DNA of 64,000 bases from Desulfatiglandales bacterium (GTDB lineage: Bacteria > Desulfobacterota > DSM-4660 > Desulfatiglandales > Desulfatiglandaceae): assembly GCA_963666345.1 (NCBI GenBank), contig OY762721.1, positions 1,056,001 to 1,120,000 of the forward strand, read 5' to 3'. How positions within the stretch are numbered: position 1 is the first letter of the stretch; each line of letters starts with the position of its first letter. Of the stretch, positions 30,001 through 42,000 are shown piece by piece. Position numbers: made by a program.

Positions 30001-33000
30001 AAATATAATTACATAAATGCGACTATTTTTACGCCACTTTTAAGCTGGTATTACCATAAGACCGCTTGACCACCAAGACAGGCTCTATCCCCATCTGCCC
30101 GCGTATCCTGTTTATGTCTTTTTCATTAGGGGGAAATGGATAATTGCGCATCTCAGGGCCGGGCCTTGAGTTCGCAAAAGGCCTGTTGCAGGCTACCTGA
30201 CCGTCGTAACCGGTACATCCGCTGGTTCTGAAAGGTTCTCCAGAATCCATAATATTGTCGAGCTTGCTCTGCAACAGCCCGAAATTCATTATTTTTCCTT
30301 CTTCATCGAATATAAAGCGGCTCACATCACTTATTTCATTGTCTATGATATAGCGGGCAAGCTGAATCCTCCTGTACTGATCCAGAGGTGGCTGGGGGTG
30401 ATCCGCCAATGTTGATCCAGGTTCCGGGAAAAAGGAAAAAAGATGGGTATACCCCCCCATTTTCCTTACCCTTTGGATCGCCGTGCACATCTCTTTCTCG
30501 GTCTCGCCCATCCCTACCATAAAATGGGACCCGGCATTACCCTTTCCAAAGATTGAAAGGCAATCTGAAAGGCACTCCCAGTATCGTTCCCATTTGTGAG
30601 GCCCCTTTACACCGCGTCCCCTGTATCTGTCAAAAAGGCTCTCTGTTGCAAGATCAATCGCCACTCCGATTTTATCGGCCCCCGCCTTTTTAAAATCGAC
30701 CAGGTCGTCACGATCAAGAACAGTAGGGGCTATCAAAAGGGACACAGGTACATCAAAGCTGCTCCTAAGTCTTTCGCATATATCACGTGTATCTTTTATG
30801 GCCCGTTTTCTCGTTACCATGGATATACAGACCCTTTTGACCTTATCCTGCCGGTCTGAAATCCTTTTTATTATCTCATCAACACCGTAGGTAGGCCACG
30901 TTACCCTTATAAAGCTTTTTTTGCCGTATTTTCCGGGCCTTGCCTTTGAAAGCCCGCAGTAGGCACATCTTGCCATGCAGCCATCCTGATAGGTCAGCAG
31001 CAGATTTATGCAGTTTAGTTTCGCGTTTCTGTAGAAAAGCCCCTGCTTGAAATCGAGCGTCATTGCCGCGGCAAGACTCATCCTCACATATTCAGGGCTT
31101 TCCTGAGGTTCTATAGCACTATCTTCCATTTGTTTTTCTCCTTATGCAGTCTCCCATTGTTCGCCTGACAGGTCCTTTGATACCGAGCAACAGGTTCTTT
31201 GATATTTTATTTTCATTCCCAGTCTTTCGGCCGCAGATATCGCCTCATCAGAGGGAAGGGCCATTCGGTTTATTCCCGCCCGGATAGCAAGTTCCTCAAG
31301 CCTCGTGTTTCCACGCTGTCGCGCGCACCCAAGGCTCATCCTCGTCTCCGGCAGGCTCAGCCGCGCCTCTGCGATTATATCCGCCACCTCTTCGGACACC
31401 GGCAGACGGAACCTTCCCGCCCCCGTTCCCGGCAACTTCATGTAAGATACGATTACAAGCTGTTCCAGGTCAAAATCGGTCAGCCTCGCAATCGCCCTTT
31501 TCTCCCCCTTTATCCTGCCGAAAAAAAGGCCGCACACGATATGAGGCACCAGGGGGATGGATGCCTTTTGAAGCGCCTCCATGGATGCATATATTCGTGA
31601 TACCCCGAAAGGCACATGATATATCTGTTTATACGTCTCATCGTCCCCTATTACGTCTATGAGTGCCTGATCCACGCCTGCCCTCTTGAGCGCAAGTGCC
31701 TTACCTTCATCAACCATCCCGCTGTGTATCGACACAAAAAGGTCGGTCTTATTTTTTATCTCTTCAATTACAGCTAGAAATTCGCTCCATGGAAGACACC
31801 CCTCACTGTCGCAACCCCCGCTCAGCAATACGCCATGGTAGCCCCTGTCCGCCAGCTTTAGGCACTTCTCCTTTAAAGTTGCCGCATCTTCTGCATGAAT
31901 CATTGTCTTTAAAAGGCTTCCCCTGCAATGTTCGCAATCAAGGCTGCAGTTGTTCCCCGTAAGTGATATGGCGGGGTAACGACCCGAAATGCCATTGTAT
32001 CTGAACATGCCCGGCAGAAAAAAGGTTATCTCCCGCCCGAAGTGTTTCCAGGAAAGCTCTCCTGCCCTGTCAATCTTTTCAATTATCTCTTTCATAGTAC
32101 CGTTTATATGAAACCCAGCATTTCCTTATAATGCCGTCGAAATTCTCCCAGTTTTCCTCCATCAGATTTCTTCTGGAACATGCCCTTTCGAGGGTTTCCC
32201 CGAAAAGATCGGACCATTCGTCTTCATACCCGCCAAGGGCCTCAATATCCTTTGAAATTACCGCCTCGGCTGCCCATTTCCCCGCCATTCGACCACCCAT
32301 GACCGCCTGGGACACCCCCGCGCCTGTAATCGGATGCGTGTGCCCGGCCGCATCGCCGGCAAGGATTACGTTGCCCTTGCGGATCTTTCTGGGGCTTTCA
32401 GCAGGTATCCAGCCTGCCATGGTCCTGAAAGATCCCTCCCTGACCTTACCCTCACGGGAAAGTCTCTGCAGAAATTTCTTCAAAACCTCCTGGATAGAAG
32501 GACTCCGTTGATCCCTCTTTTTCATTCCGATTCCTATATTTGCCGTATCACCCTTCGGGAAAACCCATGCATATCCCGCGAAAAAGTCCTTTTCAATGTA
32601 GATCTCGGTAAAATCCATCTGCCTGCTCAGGGGAACCGAGTATTGTATACCTGGTATCAGATTCCTGTTTTCAGACCCGATCCATCTGCCCACGGTGGAA
32701 TGGGGTCCGTCGGCACCGATCACCACCTTGGCATTTACTGATATGTTATCTCCCGCCTTGGTCCTGAGTAAAATTCCTTCCCTGCCCCTCGAAAGGGCGG
32801 AAGTGGAAAGAAAAATCCTTGCACCCGCCTTTTCCGCCGCCTCCGCGATGCATTGATCCAGGATGTCCCTGTTGACCATAAAGCCGGGAGCGATGGTCTC
32901 CTTGTCTTCCTTTCCCGATATAAATGTCTTCATGCCCCTTACGGGCTGGACCACGAAACCACGGCCAAGGCCGATTTCCCCCAGCAACATGCCCGGGATA

Positions 33001-39000: not shown

Positions 39001-42000
39001 ATACTTCGCATTACATCCATGGCCACATCGTCATGTTCCCAGCACATGTAGCGTGCCTTCTGCATTCCTATGCCATGCTCTCCGGTCAGCGTGCCGCCCA
39101 GCTCAATCGCCATTCTGAAAAGATCATCGCTGGCAGCCCTTTTGGCCTTTACCTGATCCTGGTCATATCCGTCGTATACAAACTGTGGGTGAAGGTTTCC
39201 ATCCCCTGCGTGACCATATGTTGCTATCATTATGTTATGTTTTTTGGAGATCTCCTGTATGCCCTTCAATGCTTCGGCCAGTCTGCTCATAGGAACCGTG
39301 ACATCCTCAAGCACCTGGTGGGTCTTGAGCCTGGCAAGGACCGCGTAAGCCGACTTTCTGGCCGCCCACAGACCGGCTGCCTCATCCTTGGACTGGGCCT
39401 GTTTAATCTCTTTGGCGTTGTTGGCCTTGAAGACCTCCAGGACCTTTGACATCTGATAATCGGTTTCTTCCTGGGTATAACCGTCGGTCTCCGAAAGCAG
39501 AATGGCATCAACCTCCGGAAGGTTCAGGTCCGTGTTCTGGTTTATGGCCATTATGGCCTCTTTTCCAAGGATCTCAAGAACCGCGGGCAGGATGCCGCTG
39601 TGCATAACCTGGCTTACCGCCCTTCCGGCATCCTCCACATCATCGAAGGTACCGAGCGCGGTAGTGGAAGCGGTCGTCATCGGATTTATCTTAAGCGTAA
39701 TTTCCGTGACAACGCCAAGGGTACCTTCAGAGCCTACAAAGAGTTTAGTGAGGTCGTAGCCGGACACACTCTTGATGCACTGAGATCCTGTCTTCATGAT
39801 TCGTCCGTCAGGAAGGACAACCTGAAGGCCGAGCACATAATCCCTTGTTGTGCCGTATTTGGCCCCCCTTACCCCTCCCGCGTTGGTGGCGACATTTCCG
39901 CCCAGGGTACAAACCTGACTGCTTGCGGGATCAGGGGGGAAAAAGAACCCGTAGGGTGCTATCGCCCTTGCCAGATCGTCATATACCACACCAGGTTCAA
40001 CCACGACCAGACGATCTTCTATGCTTATCTTCTTGATCCTGTTCATGTGATTGAGATCAAGAACGATTCCTCCCTTAAGCGGTATGGCCATACCGGTAAG
40101 GCCAGTCGCCCCCCCCCTCGGTATTACGGGCATCTCTTCCTTGTTGGCCAGCTTCAGGATCTCCGAGACATGCTCGACCGTCTGGGGCCACACACCACAG
40201 GAAGGCCTGTGAGTGTATTCGCTTGCATCGTAAGAATAGGAGACCATATCTATCAGGCTGTCATTGTAGTTCTTCTCCCCTACAATCTCAATCAAGGCCT
40301 TTTTTAGTCTGTCTTCCAAGGTTTACCTCCTTAAACGTCCCCTGCAGAATGTAAACGGCAGAGGGTCAGCCCTTTATCAGTCGTGATGATCCTCATTTGC
40401 CGCCGCACGCATAGAGAGCATGACAGGCCCCAAAATTATGTGAAACAGGCGACTGAAGGGCAGGTATGCAACAAATATCCCGGTAAGTATCGCATGCAGA
40501 TACCATATGAAGCCGTATATACCTGTCAACCATGTTCCGGAAAATACAAGGCTGATAATATAGCCTAAAAATGCATAGCCTGAGTTGTCCGGCCGGCCTG
40601 TCATGGCGATTCTTATTCCTTCCAGTATGAAGCCTACGACAACAATCCCTCCTATGAGACACAGTGCCAGTCTGTCCTGCCTGGGAAGGCCCCGAGCAGG
40701 ATTTACCTGTCTGAAAAGGCCGCGCACAAAGGCGGAGATTATCCCGGCAATTATCATCAGCCCGGTCAAATCATATAGGAATGCGGTAAGCGGATGGTTC
40801 TTGTATACCATATCCCAGATAAATGATGATTCCGAAGGATGCCATAGAGATCCCAGAAGGGCGAAAAGCCCCCAGAAAAACCTGAACACAAAGGGCAGGA
40901 AAATCAGGCTGTGTATCAACCAGCGTGTCGGAGACTGAAGATAGAGCCTCCTCTGGAGCAGCACATCAAAGAAGAGAGTCTTAATGATCTCCCCGATCTT
41001 TTTTGAAAAGATCGCACCAAACGCGCTTCCGAGAAGAACTCCCAGTTTGGAAAACGGCCCCAACCCCTCTTTGCCTTGAATGGAACCGGAAAGGAGCACT
41101 GAGAAAAACGCCGCCACACCGAATAAAAATACCAGAAGAGAAAGTATCGTAACAGTATCACCCGCGGAAAAGGTGGCGATATGGCAGGGCATGCACAAGA
41201 CCCCTTTTGCCGGCAGCACCATGGCTGCCGCACCCAGGGTATTGCCCGAACTGTGGCATCTTTTGCAGGAGTCATCGTCTTCAAATTCAATCATCTCATG
41301 AATAGAAAGTTTCGAACCGGTTGATGCAGGCCTTTCCCACACTATACGATTTGTTTTTTCATCCTTGACAGGAGTCACCCCTTTGAGATGGCATGCCTCG
41401 CAGGATACCCCGACATGCGCGTCATGGGCCATCTTTTCATCATGAGGATTATGGCAGCGGGTGCAGTCTCCCGGTTTCTGTTCATGGTGATAGTATTGAG
41501 CGGCATTGGGGTGACAGGTCGTGCAGGCCATTGAGGCGTGAGGCGTTTTTTCGTAATCCTTGAGATCTATAAGAGGAAGCGCCTTTGAGGTTATCTTCTG
41601 CGCCTCCTTTTCTCCCTCGCCGTGGCAGTTGGTACAGAGAGAGACGACCTGTTTTTTGCCCTCCGCAGTAACATGGTCGACCTCTCGGTGGCATGTCATG
41701 CAGGCCTCATCGTCTTCAGAAAGCACCGGGAGTTTCGATCGCTCTTCGTGGCAGGCCCCGCACTGGAGGTGACGCGGCCTGGACGGGTCGAATTCGCCCG
41801 CTGCGTTTTCATCCCGACTCTGAAGGTAGTGGGGCTTGTGACAACGTATGCAGAGGCCGTACTTTTCCTTATCCTTTACCTGTCTTGAGCCATGGGTACC
41901 CGATTCAAGGTCATCCATTATATAGTCATGACAATCCAGACATTGTTGGGCTTCGAAAAAATCGACCTTGCCCTTTTTTACATTCGAGGGATCAGGGTGA

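Follow-up and report, generated by a model that had tools for sequence, protein, structure and literature searches.

What a lipoyl carrier of the GcvH fold is doing between two HdrD-like proteins, beside a GlcD-like dehydrogenase and a set of lipoate-assembly genes, is the question raised by this locus of a Desulfatiglandales bacterium of the sulfate-reducer type. An earlier note described a row of nine genes, and read the protein-bound dithiol/disulfide of the carrier as the ‘heterodisulfide’ of its HdrD-like neighbours, linking the dehydrogenase to the membrane. In the window (the whole 64-kb stretch of DNA that was analysed) ORFs, Pfam and NCBIfam return the same row with matching coordinates and domains, on the minus strand throughout; a tenth gene, cytNarI, had however been overlooked directly upstream, just 57 bp from the GlcD-like gene, and belongs to the same unit. 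The features are as follows:

26239..29373, minus strand: TRAP transporter genes for DctP (28234-29373), DctQ (27549-28100) and DctM (26239-27552), by Pfam
30029..31129, minus strand: LipS2-like radical-SAM protein (NF053743, 231.2 bits, under the cut-off of 270)
31142..32095, minus strand: LipS1-like radical-SAM protein (NF053742, 213.7 bits, just under the cut-off of 230)
32079..33146, minus strand: LipT-like GGR-family FAD oxidoreductase (TIGR02032, 210.7 bits, above the cut-off of 158.8)
33167..34738, minus strand: Lpl2, LplA-type ligase fused to a Cys-rich DUF116 domain (Pfam)
34735..35802, minus strand: Lpl1, LplA-type lipoate/octanoate:protein ligase with an LplB-like C-terminus (Pfam LplA-B_cat and Lip_prot_lig_C; NCBIfam lipoyltrans, 127 bits, below the cut-off of 280)
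36127..37311, minus strand: HdrD2 (Pfam, NCBIfam, motif scan)
37313..37735, minus strand: Lbp, GcvH-fold carrier of 140 aa (Pfam GCV_H, 1e-39)
37835..38947, minus strand: HdrD1 (Pfam, NCBIfam, motif scan; the ORF extends to 38989, the likely start being 38947 or 38935)
38937..40319, minus strand: GlcD-like FAD D-2-hydroxyacid dehydrogenase of the lactate/glycolate type (Pfam FAD_binding_4 and FAD-oxidase_C; NCBIfam)
40377..42200, minus strand: cytNarI, 607 aa (Pfam Cytochrome_C7 and Cytochrom_c3_2; motif and hydropathy count)
42369..42384, minus strand: predicted sigma-54-type promoter consensus TGGCAC-N5-TTGCT, ~170 nt upstream of the cytNarI start codon

Working downstream from cytNarI, we see that the stop of Lbp and the start of HdrD2 are 1 bp apart, and that a gap of 324 bp then separates HdrD2 from Lpl1; two transcription units, one for the redox genes and one for lipoate assembly, are therefore likely. 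The match to the sigma-54 consensus is the sole exact one in the window and may act as a promoter, the motif recurring in 0/54 relatives’ loci; a second copy with one mismatch lies near the TRAP genes (29867-29882). In one marine-sediment study, four runs of RNA libraries gave contigs (95-99% alike) that map to 36037-41666 and span both the HdrD2/Lbp and GlcD/cytNarI junctions; they stem from this study alone, may include DNA and are no proof of a single transcript. The TRAP set, found downstream of the module in three relatives’ loci (L012, L132, L137) and upstream of it in three more (L028, L033, L095), probably serves substrate uptake for the module.

Which of these genes belong together is best seen among the relatives, bearing in mind that these are kin and that the counts overstate their independence. 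Entering from Lbp, we collected 49 distinct loci. HdrD2 is the next gene downstream in 31 of the 40 with at least 1300 bp of sequence on that side, plus one at 2.7 kb—the usual neighbour, then, rather than the constant one claimed before (29 of 29)—and is not beside Lbp in eight of the 40 (L017, L022, L032, L034, L036, L039, L043, L103). The position directly upstream of Lbp, given to HdrD1 in 21 of 29 loci by the earlier count, is shared on our recount between HdrD1 (16/40) and cytNarI (another 16/40), with cytNarI found no more than 4.6 kb upstream in 24/32. A further 71 new loci, entered from HdrD2, have Lbp next upstream in 57/61 and cytNarI upstream in 44/46; in three of these HdrD2-entry loci (L145, L156, L181) HdrD2 follows cytNarI directly with no Lbp between. 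Lbp was also present, at 56% identity or above, in 16 genomes of a 251-genome sample of the phylum, 12 of which have cytNarI upstream in the same orientation, at most 3.5 kb away. The GlcD-HdrD1 pair occurs in 20/49 Lbp-entry and 16/46 HdrD2-entry loci, and a PDH/acetoin-type E1a-E1b-E2-Lpd-LipB set in 11/49 and 13/46, respectively; TRAP or MFS uptake systems, LarA and PFOR are found among the other neighbours. In place of a conserved partnership of the carrier with two HdrDs and GlcD, synteny thus gives a core of cytNarI, Lbp, HdrD2 and the lipoate-assembly genes (orthologues of Lpl2 following HdrD2 in many loci), with GlcD-HdrD1 as one of several interchangeable ‘feeder’ modules. As a lead, we record that Lbp or the cytNarI-Lbp-HdrD2 triad stands in some loci beside a protein with an invariant CRRC in a thioredoxin-like region; four loci have sulfatase genes in the vicinity of Lbp.

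Lbp shares 40% identity over 127 aa with the canonical GcvH of the same genome, as first reported, and forms a distinct clade of GcvH-fold proteins: its 47 orthologues fall on one split (SH-aLRT 98 and 96 in quick trees; UFBoot 93 / SH-aLRT 92 in a careful tree). By alignment K68 occupies the position of the lipoyl-lysine in GcvH (1onl), within an invariant ESGKW-GK motif and itself invariant in 47 sequences, and is the residue at which Lbp would be lipoylated; a basic stretch, K53-K63, precedes it. The carrier had been called LbpA-type. It is not an LbpA as the literature defines it, since we find neither an N- nor a C-terminal Cys pair (the two terminal cysteines being the mark of LbpA) and neither sHdrA nor a sulfurtransferase around the gene.

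The genome does hold a separate canonical set, in a gcvT-gcvH-gcvPA-gcvPB-lipB-lipA operon elsewhere. It also encodes a third GcvH-like protein, accompanied by a ligase of its own and by a paralogue of LipS2 with 53% identity (contig positions 1375585-1378242), as well as a fourth GCV_H-domain protein of 324 aa. No E2 (PF00198) was found in the genome (a single contig, 96.7% complete), and a role for Lbp as lipoyl relay to E2 is therefore ruled out here. The LipT role of the GGR-family protein is taken from Tanabe 2023, which also reports that LipS1/S2 are not confined to sulfur oxidisers and lists NaphS2 and Dethiosulfatarculus with LipS1/S2/LipT but without sHdr (supplement file 8); together with a Roseovarius that has an LbpA1-like protein and no sHdr (2026 preprint), this places part of the novelty first claimed, LbpA-type proteins outside sHdr, already in print.

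On the membrane side, cytNarI opens with an N-terminal signal/anchor helix, carries 11 CXXCH haem-c motifs and ends in a membrane domain of five helices that resembles NarI, HdrE and EtfD. The profile hits of this C-terminal domain are Nitrate_red_gam (21 bits against a cut-off of 22.9, E=2.9e-4), DsrM (E=0.0027) and TmcC (E=0.015), and in 26 orthologues H430, H569 and H587 never vary. An AF2 model (pLDDT 87.6) has as its best Foldseek matches EtfD 9ojn (E=1.9e-3, prob 1.0) and NarI (prob 1.0), none reaching E<=1e-3. HdrD2 contains two cubane-cluster motifs and two CCG motifs (10 Cys); all 18 of its cysteines are invariant in 35 sequences, and the ten of the CCG domains are kept in 97/97. Its closest solved relative is again EtfD (9ojn_A, E=2.1e-55), an ETF:menaquinone oxidoreductase and not a disulfide reductase. 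HdrD2 nevertheless has CC at the C-T539 position of EtfD, and S241 at that of the blocking histidine H583, where HdrD2 sequences carry Ser or Thr but never His. According to the EMO preprint it is exactly these two deviations that make the EMO clusters electron-transfer-only. With all ten cluster cysteines kept and the blocking histidine absent, HdrD2 resembles a catalytic heterodisulfide reductase; but GlcF, GlpC and D-iLDH, whose roles are called ‘less defined’, have intact CCG motifs too, and the ten cysteines are therefore no proof of thiol chemistry.

The idea of the lipoyl group as ‘heterodisulfide’ fits all of these tests, as a proposal drawn from gene order and sequence features. We give roughly an even chance to a reading in which cytNarI, Lbp and HdrD2 assemble as a membrane-bound, HdrDE/DsrMK-like oxidoreductase with the lipoyl dithiol/disulfide on K68 of Lbp as its cytoplasmic substrate; Lbp would then play the part that DsrC has for DsrMK and CoM-S-S-CoB for HdrDE. 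Oxidation or reduction of the lipoyl group would take place at the two non-cubane clusters of HdrD2, whose two cubane clusters would relay the electrons to haem b of the NarI-like domain; the 11 c haems of the periplasm and/or menaquinone would come next. We infer each of these transfers, as well as the contact between Lbp and HdrD2. The adjacent ligases, LipT, LipS1 and LipS2 would build the lipoyl group on Lbp, and we count such dedicated genes, despite the canonical gcvH-lipB-lipA, in favour of this reading.

The supposed link from dehydrogenase to membrane gains a concrete partner in the 11-haem c/NarI-like fusion; GlcD-HdrD1 is replaceable. The GlcD-like protein scores 474.7 bits against TIGR00387 (cut-off 567.9), has glycolate oxidase 9qgz (1.4e-93), LctD 7qh2_C (3.8e-83) and mouse D-LDH 8jdc as relatives in the PDB, and keeps H370, H377, E414 and H415 in 32-33 of 33 orthologues. 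HdrD1, found with GlcD in every case, forms its own clade (SH-aLRT 99) and has two CX2CX2CX3C motifs, two complete CCG motifs and no TM helix, its cysteines being conserved in 42/42 sequences (C354 in 41/42). The pair may be a D-lactate/2-hydroxyacid dehydrogenase that shares the carrier or the membrane anchor for electron exchange, a PDH/acetoin-type E1-E2-E3 complex taking its place in other genomes. With standard potentials of about -290 mV for lipoamide and -190 mV for lactate/pyruvate, transfer from lactate to Lbp is uphill; GlcD to HdrD1 to Lbp is therefore the weakest step of the proposal.

That same difference makes transfer from dihydrolipoyl to a 2-oxoacid downhill, and suits the complex running in reverse: electrons from periplasmic H2 or formate would reach haem b by way of the 11 c haems and go on to HdrD2, which would reduce lipoyl-Lbp, as Tmc, Hmc and DsrMK are thought to act on DsrC. 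Dihydrolipoyl-Lbp would then be a cytoplasmic reductant, possibly for a 2-oxoacid via HdrD1-GlcD, NAD+ via Lpd, or CXXC/peroxidase-type proteins. HdrDE and DsrMKJOP, whose architecture is similar, both reduce disulfide substrates; the top NCBIfam match of the two HdrD-like proteins (154 and 182.5 bits, below the cut-off of 385) is TfrB, part of a thiol-oxidising flavoenzyme; and the CRRC protein beside Lbp in some loci agrees with this direction, as do the GcvH-like proteins cited as donors to OsmC in a 2026 preprint. The locus has, however, no periplasmic hydrogenase or formate dehydrogenase, and the catabolic neighbours listed above suggest substrate oxidation with electrons flowing outwards. 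We consider the reversed direction improbable, and lean, weakly, towards dehydrogenase to Lbp to membrane.

It is also unlikely, in our view, that the locus involves no thiol chemistry: GlcD-HdrD1 would here be an ordinary GlcDF/Dld-II-type dehydrogenase for lactate or glycolate and HdrD2-cytNarI a split EtfD/EMO-like module feeding quinone or cytochromes, with Lbp and its assembly genes a neighbouring cassette of lipoate metabolism (a GcvH paralogue or lipoyl relay, for example) that has no redox link. HdrD2 and the membrane domain do both have EtfD as their nearest solved relative, GlcD has functional glycolate and lactate dehydrogenases among its close relatives, the 324-bp gap divides redox from assembly genes, and the E1-E2-E3-LipB-type loci hold an E2 and LipB, so that lipoate genes there could serve E2. 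Yet Lbp is placed apart from the assembly genes, between cytNarI/HdrD1 and the HdrD2 gene that it all but abuts, an arrangement that recurs in those 57 of 61 HdrD2-entry loci; no E2 was found for it to serve in this genome, which already holds gcvH-lipB-lipA, HdrD2 shows neither EMO-type deviation, and the row contains no ETF genes. Least probable is a role like that of sHdr-LbpA, the lipoyl arm bearing sulfane sulfur that HdrD-like proteins oxidise or reduce, which would tie sulfur intermediates to the membrane: sHdr systems, as Cao 2018 describes them, also combine CCG proteins with a carrier resembling GcvH and an assembly set of the sLpl/LipT/LipS1/S2 type, the hosts are bacteria that metabolise sulfur and four loci have those sulfatase genes, but the terminal cysteines of LbpA are missing, no TusA, DsrE, rhodanese or sHdrA-like gene occurs within ~15 kb on either side, and the neighbours are carbon-substrate dehydrogenases.

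Returning to the membrane-bound oxidoreductase with lipoyl-Lbp as its substrate, we found no published description of such a module in the literature; it suggests an undescribed route by which electrons may travel between cytoplasmic dehydrogenases and the cell envelope via a protein-bound dithiol.

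Read from the membrane end inwards, the genes form a single row on the minus strand. The nine-gene row described in the earlier note is borne out by open reading frames, Pfam and NCBIfam, and is enlarged by cytNarI, a fusion of an 11-haem c-type part with a NarI-like membrane part:

40377-42200, minus strand: cytNarI, 607 aa, 57 bp upstream of GlcD; an N-terminal helix is followed by 11 CXXCH motifs and, at the C-terminal end, by five transmembrane helices
38937-40319, minus strand: GlcD, a GlcD-like flavoprotein (ORFs, Pfam, NCBIfam)
37835-38989, minus strand, likely start 38947 or 38935: HdrD1, an HdrD-like CCG protein (ORFs, Pfam, NCBIfam)
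37313-37735, minus strand: Lbp, the GCV_H carrier, 140 aa (ORFs, Pfam)
36127-37311, minus strand: HdrD2, the second HdrD-like CCG protein; start 1 bp past the Lbp stop
324 bp: gap between HdrD2 and the first ligase gene (ORFs)
34735-35802, minus strand: Lpl1, LplA-type ligase (Pfam)
33167-34738, minus strand: Lpl2, LplA-type ligase fused to DUF116 (Pfam)
32079-33146, minus strand: LipT-like GGR-family flavoprotein (210.7 bits, above the 158.8 cut-off)
31142-32095, minus strand: LipS1-like protein (213.7 bits against a cut-off of 230)
30029-31129, minus strand: LipS2-like protein (231.2 bits against a cut-off of 270)

The membrane part of cytNarI matches Nitrate_red_gam (E=2.9e-4, 21 bits, below the 22.9 cut-off), as well as DsrM (E=0.0027) and TmcC (E=0.015). 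An AlphaFold2 model built with 26 orthologues has a pLDDT of 87.6; searched with Foldseek, its top match is EtfD of M. smegmatis (9ojn; E=1.9e-3, prob 1.0, TMq 0.58), with E. coli NarI also recovered at prob 1.0 (TM 0.44-0.54) and no match at E<=1e-3. Three histidines—H430, H569 and H587—are invariant among the 26 orthologues, the latter two being 18 apart, a spacing to set beside that of the haem-ligand histidines of NarI.

GlcD scores 474.7 bits against TIGR00387, below the 567.9 cut-off, and its relatives among solved structures are glycolate oxidase (1.4e-93), LctD (3.8e-83) and mouse D-LDH; the His/His/Glu motifs HxGDGNxH and GEHG, of the metal- and substrate-binding kind and presumably catalytic, are kept in 32-33 of 33 orthologues. 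At the other end of the row, two LplA-B_cat ligases with a C-terminal domain and the GGR-family protein share one row with the two radical-SAM proteins, whose best NCBIfam matches are the LipS1 and LipS2 families, both at scores below the cut-offs. Residues about 376-488 of Lpl2 form the Cys-rich DUF116 domain, and fusion orthologues of 520-530 aa follow HdrD2 in many loci. A LipS2 search in the class of a MAG labelled Gammaproteobacteria (182 genomes) gave 3 matches, below the cut-off.

Lbp itself is matched by Pfam GCV_H at 1e-39 and is 40% identical to the canonical GcvH, the same value as reported before. Its K68 aligns with the lipoyl-Lys position of the GcvH structure 1onl and lies in an ESGKW-GK motif, invariant in 47 Lbp sequences. 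In trees of the 47 Lbp orthologues with 45 canonical GcvHs from other phyla, a single split sets Lbp apart, supported by SH-aLRT values of 98 and 96 in quick trees and by UFBoot 93/SH-aLRT 92 in a careful tree whose bootstrap had not fully settled. LbpA is defined by two strictly conserved cysteines, one near each terminus, in Cao 2018 and in the 2026 ligase preprint (section 2.4). Neither is found in the 36- and 47-sequence alignments of Lbp, whose only cysteine is C99. The carrier had been called ‘LbpA-type’; by definition this label does not hold, with both terminal cysteines and a sulfurtransferase context missing, while the GcvH fold and the lipoyl-Lys position are kept. The carrier has a pI of 4.48 and a run of basic residues (K53-K63) ahead of K68; for LbpA, the preprint names a basic ligase-facing surface and a pI above about 4.5.

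The same genome holds further lipoate genes. Some 3 Mb from the module there is a canonical gcvT-H-PA-PB-lipB-lipA operon that has an Lpd gene next to it. A third GcvH-like gene, GcvH3 (145 aa; contig 1375585-1378242, L007:7585-10242), has an LplA-type ligase of its own and a LipS2 paralogue (53% identity) after it and adjoins hisD; it carries the motif QSRKWIGK, has a pI of 4.07, and bears the acidic run EEEEEVEQGE where Lbp is basic, and no redox partner lies beside it at this locus. A 324-aa protein (contig 2612533-2613507, minus strand; L008:7533-8507) combines two Cys-rich N-terminal motifs with a C-terminal GCV_H domain, at a pI of 8.05. A further Lpl2-like ligase (525 bits to Lpl2) is found at 1122924-1124024, just past the window's end, and a second GlcD/GlcE-like/HdrD-like set at 1033842-1037929, before its start, both within about 25 kb of the module. 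We also considered Lbp as a lipoyl donor to an E2 acyltransferase—a ‘lipoyl relay’—and set the idea aside for this genome because no match to PF00198 was found in its single contig (96.7% complete); such a relay is possible in relatives that carry an E1-E2-E3-LipB set at the locus.

Among the best 80 of 199 Lbp relatives, 35 share 64-89% identity with Lbp and all others 50% or less. With 15 loci added from a 251-genome sample of the phylum and two duplicates removed, we arrived at 49 distinct loci, mapped by phmmer with the window's proteins. HdrD2 is the next gene downstream of Lbp in 31 of the 40 loci with at least 1300 bp downstream, lies at 2.7 kb in one and is lacking in eight; cytNarI stands within 4.6 kb upstream of Lbp, on the same strand, in 24/32 loci with at least 5 kb upstream, and immediately upstream of Lbp stands cytNarI in 16/40 loci and HdrD1 in another 16/40. 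In the phylum sample alone, Lbp occurs at 56% identity or more in 16/251 genomes, 12 of which have cytNarI within 3.5 kb upstream. A reciprocal view comes from an HdrD2 profile (35 orthologues), for which the best 80 of at least 620 relatives comprised eight from DNA already in the Lbp set and yielded 71 new loci: Lbp is the next gene upstream of HdrD2 in 57 of the 61 with enough sequence, and cytNarI lies upstream of HdrD2 in 44/46. The exceptions to the Lbp-HdrD2 pairing are L123, which is rearranged, and three loci in which HdrD2 comes straight after cytNarI (L145, L156 and L181). All of these counts overstate independence, since the loci stem from related organisms.

The dehydrogenase genes are far less constant. 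GlcD-HdrD1 precedes Lbp in 20/49 loci of the first set and in 16/46 of the new ones, and a complete E1alpha-E1beta-E2-Lpd-LipB set stands directly before cytNarI-Lbp-HdrD2 in 11/49 and 13/46; the LipB of the latter passes TIGR00214 (150 bits, above the 83.55 cut-off) and the E1 and E2 are PDH-like, with scores below cut-offs. Genes for lactate racemase LarA, PFOR and TRAP or MFS transporters turn up repeatedly in the vicinity. Since the triad cytNarI-Lbp-HdrD2 stays and the dehydrogenase set varies, we take the invariant unit to be the triad plus the lipoate-assembly genes, with an exchangeable dehydrogenase. In some relatives (L014-L016, L115 and L121) a second, 512-aa GlcD-like gene directly follows HdrD2 in place of the ligase genes, and some also have a further GlcD-HdrD pair with LarA upstream.

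A third context contains sulfatase and LysR genes, with the whole triad in loci L009 and L030 and Lbp alone in L022 and L034. It includes a protein of 425-463 aa, outside any Pfam family, with an invariant CRRC (LVCRRCRRE) in a weakly thioredoxin-like C-terminal part. Matches to thioredoxin/AhpC-TSA are weak (Atlas 0.85-0.88, Pfam E 0.03-0.24), and we treat the likeness as a lead only. The CRRC protein is encoded at:

L009:6041-7318
L030:6720-8111
L022:10442-11734
L034:8588-9910
own genome, 2779052-2780395

HdrD1 and HdrD2 share 31% identity and fall into separate clades (SH-aLRT 99 and 98); both carry two cubane and two CCG motifs and lack a transmembrane helix. Both have TfrB as their best NCBIfam match (154-182 bits against a cut-off of 385), and HdrD2 stays far below the equivalog cut-offs of DsrK (97.3 vs 400), TmcB (88.2 vs 735) and HmcF (69.3 vs 750). 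Ten cysteines of HdrD2 (C167, C202, C203, C239 and C242, then C287, C323, C324, C361 and C364) fit two CX31-39CCX35-36CXXC motifs, accompanied by two cubane CX2CX2CX3C motifs, and all ten are kept in 97/97 sequences; those of HdrD1, whose first motif has a 30-residue spacer, are kept in 42/42 (C354 in 41/42). The best solved relative of the HdrD2 profile is EtfD (9ojn_A, E=2.1e-55), far ahead of HdrB (3e-11). EtfD belongs to the ETF:(methyl)menaquinone oxidoreductases (EMOs), and according to the EMO preprint, catalytic HDR sites use 10 Cys, whereas characterised EMOs have lost one (T539 in MsEMO, G535 in SaEMO) and fill the substrate position with a His (H583 or H534), so that their clusters transfer electrons only. 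In the alignment to 9ojn, C202-C203 of HdrD2 lie against C538-T539 and C239-P-S-C242 against C581-P-H583-C584; the ‘CC’ pair lost from EMO is thus kept, and position 241, where EMO has its blocking His, is Ser in 94 and Thr in 3 of the 97 sequences (Tyr at the equivalent site of HdrD1). Judged by these criteria, the HdrD2 sequence appears HDR-like rather than EMO-like, because the ten cysteines are kept and Ser/Thr occupies the position of the EMO His, as expected of an open substrate site. The same preprint, however, calls the role of the intact CCG domains of GlcF, GlpC and D-iLDH undefined. In a rival reading, the module would be a pure electron-transfer unit of EMO/GlcF kind next to an unrelated lipoate cassette; where lbp lies, the lack of E2 and ETF genes, and the HDR-type site of HdrD2 all weaken this alternative.

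Around the module, from about 13 to 57 kb of the window, the Pfam-annotated neighbours include an SDR, an acyl-CoA-type ligase, a B12 mutase, a GntR regulator, two TRAP systems and a sigma-54 two-component pair; none is a TusA, DsrE, rhodanese or HdrA-like gene, and no shdr or sulfurtransferase gene appears in the relatives' maps, which were annotated with the module query set only. A sulfur role of the sHdr kind, to which a GcvH-like carrier beside Hdr-like proteins and LipS1/S2 would lend itself, is weakened because sulfurtransferases and the LbpA cysteines are absent. Upstream, at 43644-47349, lie genes for an AMP-forming ligase with AMP-binding_C_2, a B12-binding protein and a methylmalonyl-CoA-mutase-like protein, which look like an acyl-CoA rearrangement set, and a divergent GntR/FCD regulator follows at 47709-48425.

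The only exact match in the window to the sigma-54 promoter consensus (TGGCAC-N5-TTGCT) lies at 42369-42384 (minus strand), about 170 nt upstream of cytNarI and on the right strand, with a one-mismatch copy at 29867-29882 (minus strand) upstream of dctP and a sigma-54 response regulator plus PAS histidine kinase at 18966-23251. The exact motif is found upstream of cytNarI in 0/54 relatives' loci, and a count that allows up to 2 mismatches shows no enrichment across the window (19 vs 29.7 expected). Scanned for sigma-70 promoters and terminators, the stretch 29000-43000 yielded 23 and 21 sites (shuffles, 16.5 +/- 4.2 and 14.3 +/- 5.1), a result uninformative on operon limits. RNA-library contigs from four libraries of one marine-sediment study, 95-99% alike, map to 36037-41666 and bridge the HdrD2/Lbp and GlcD/cytNarI junctions; the TRAP genes are heavily covered and the lipoate-assembly genes (31.4-35.6 kb) almost uncovered, a lack that proves nothing. 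These contigs are compatible with expression of the module but no proof of it, and they cannot prove a single transcript.

In the reading we consider best supported, and in which we infer every functional step, cytNarI and HdrD2 would together make up a membrane complex of split HdrDE/DsrMK-like build, with the lipoyl group of Lbp as its redox partner on the cytoplasmic side. The ligases, LipT, LipS1 and LipS2 would mature this group, and GlcD-HdrD1 here, or E1-E2-E3 elsewhere, would be dehydrogenases using the same carrier or the same anchor. The catabolic neighbours favour electron flow from dehydrogenase to Lbp to membrane. Potentials are about -290 mV for lipoamide, -190 mV for lactate/pyruvate and -74 mV for menaquinone; transfer from lactate to Lbp would therefore be uphill, making reverse flow or a shared-anchor arrangement plausible.

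Among the known systems set beside the module is HdrDE of Methanosarcina. Both have an HdrD in the cytoplasm, with ten Cys in two complete CCG motifs plus two cubane motifs, and a five-helix membrane subunit, of NarI-type haem-b kind in HdrDE and probably so in the module; a thiol/disulfide substrate is proposed for the module too. Sequence scores are low (HdrB, 3e-11 in the PDB). Unlike HdrDE, the module occurs in bacteria, which lack CoM-S-S-CoB, its candidate substrate is a lipoylated protein, and its membrane subunit has an extra 11-haem c domain. DsrMK(JOP) with DsrC, TmcABCD and HmcABCDEF also couple c haems on the periplasmic side to a cytochrome b in the membrane (putative in the module) and an HdrD-like CCG protein in the cytoplasm, and DsrC is a protein-borne dithiol substrate, matching the role proposed for Lbp; the module differs in fusing c-haem and putative b-type parts in one protein and in having a putative lipoyl carrier with its own assembly genes. 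The EMOs (M. smegmatis, 9ojn; Syntrophus aciditrophicus) share its domain order, but are one polypeptide with ETF as partner and no c haems, whereas the module is split and has them. The sHdr-LbpA systems of Hyphomicrobium, Thioalkalivibrio and Aquifex likewise unite a GcvH-like lipoyl protein, CCG Hdr-like proteins and a dedicated ligase/LipT/LipS1/LipS2 set (LipS1-like and LipS2-like in the module), with canonical lipoylation genes located elsewhere; the module, unlike these, lacks sHdrA and sulfurtransferases, has a membrane cytochrome, has HdrB and HdrC fused as HdrD, has a carrier without the two terminal Cys and lies beside lactate or pyruvate-type dehydrogenases. Finally, GlcDEF, Dld-II-type D-lactate dehydrogenase with its HdrD-like subunit, and TfrAB pair a flavoprotein (VAO-family or other) with an FeS/CCG subunit, the module falling below their cut-offs (GlcD 474.7 vs 567.9, GlcF 71 vs 333, TfrB 154-182 vs 385); by the literature searched, none is known to have a lipoyl carrier or multihaem membrane partner. 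Provisionally, we class the module with the Hdr/Dsr/Tmc kind of membrane complex, with a putative lipoyl-protein partner. The earlier suggestion that the carrier is the redox substrate of the HdrD-like proteins is partly supported.

That LipS1/S2 are not limited to sulfur oxidisers is already stated in Tanabe 2023. In its supplement file 8, NaphS2 is entered with LbpA1 0, LbpA2 0 and sHdr 0, and Dethiosulfatarculus with LbpA1 1 and sHdr 0, both with LipS1, LipS2 and LipT; both carry Lbp orthologues (L025, L031, L034). The 2026 ligase preprint places an LbpA1-like protein in Roseovarius, where sHdr is lacking, and mentions GcvH-like proteins that donate to OsmC. A term search of the main texts of Tanabe 2023 and Cao 2018 gave no match to ‘Desulf’ or ‘HdrD’, and our literature search, with Tanabe 2023 file 13 and bioRxiv supplements outside its scope, returned no paper linking a lipoyl protein to HdrD, HdrE or DsrMK-type complexes.

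Sulfate reducers and syntrophs hold many HdrD-like CCG proteins with unknown substrates, and debate continues over the route by which lactate or pyruvate oxidation feeds electrons to the membrane. A lipoyl protein dedicated to the purpose, lying between the two subunits of an HdrDE-like complex, is a specific, testable candidate. Cultured strains, among them Desulfovibrio desulfuricans SFAD67, Dethiosulfatarculus sandiegensis and NaphS2, carry the module, so genetics and biochemistry are feasible, and its redox genes are overlaid by contigs from marine-sediment RNA libraries. Tentatively, and at somewhat under an even chance, we propose that one family of bacterial HdrD-type membrane complexes has a lipoylated GcvH-like protein as its physiological thiol/disulfide substrate—a small protein electron carrier linking lactate- and pyruvate/acetoin-type dehydrogenases to a transmembrane haem wire. 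The LipS1/S2 lipoate-assembly pathway would thereby gain a new client; and, if true, lipoate would have a respiratory role outside 2-oxoacid, glycine and sHdr metabolism, and bacterial HdrD-like proteins their first concrete substrate other than DsrC.
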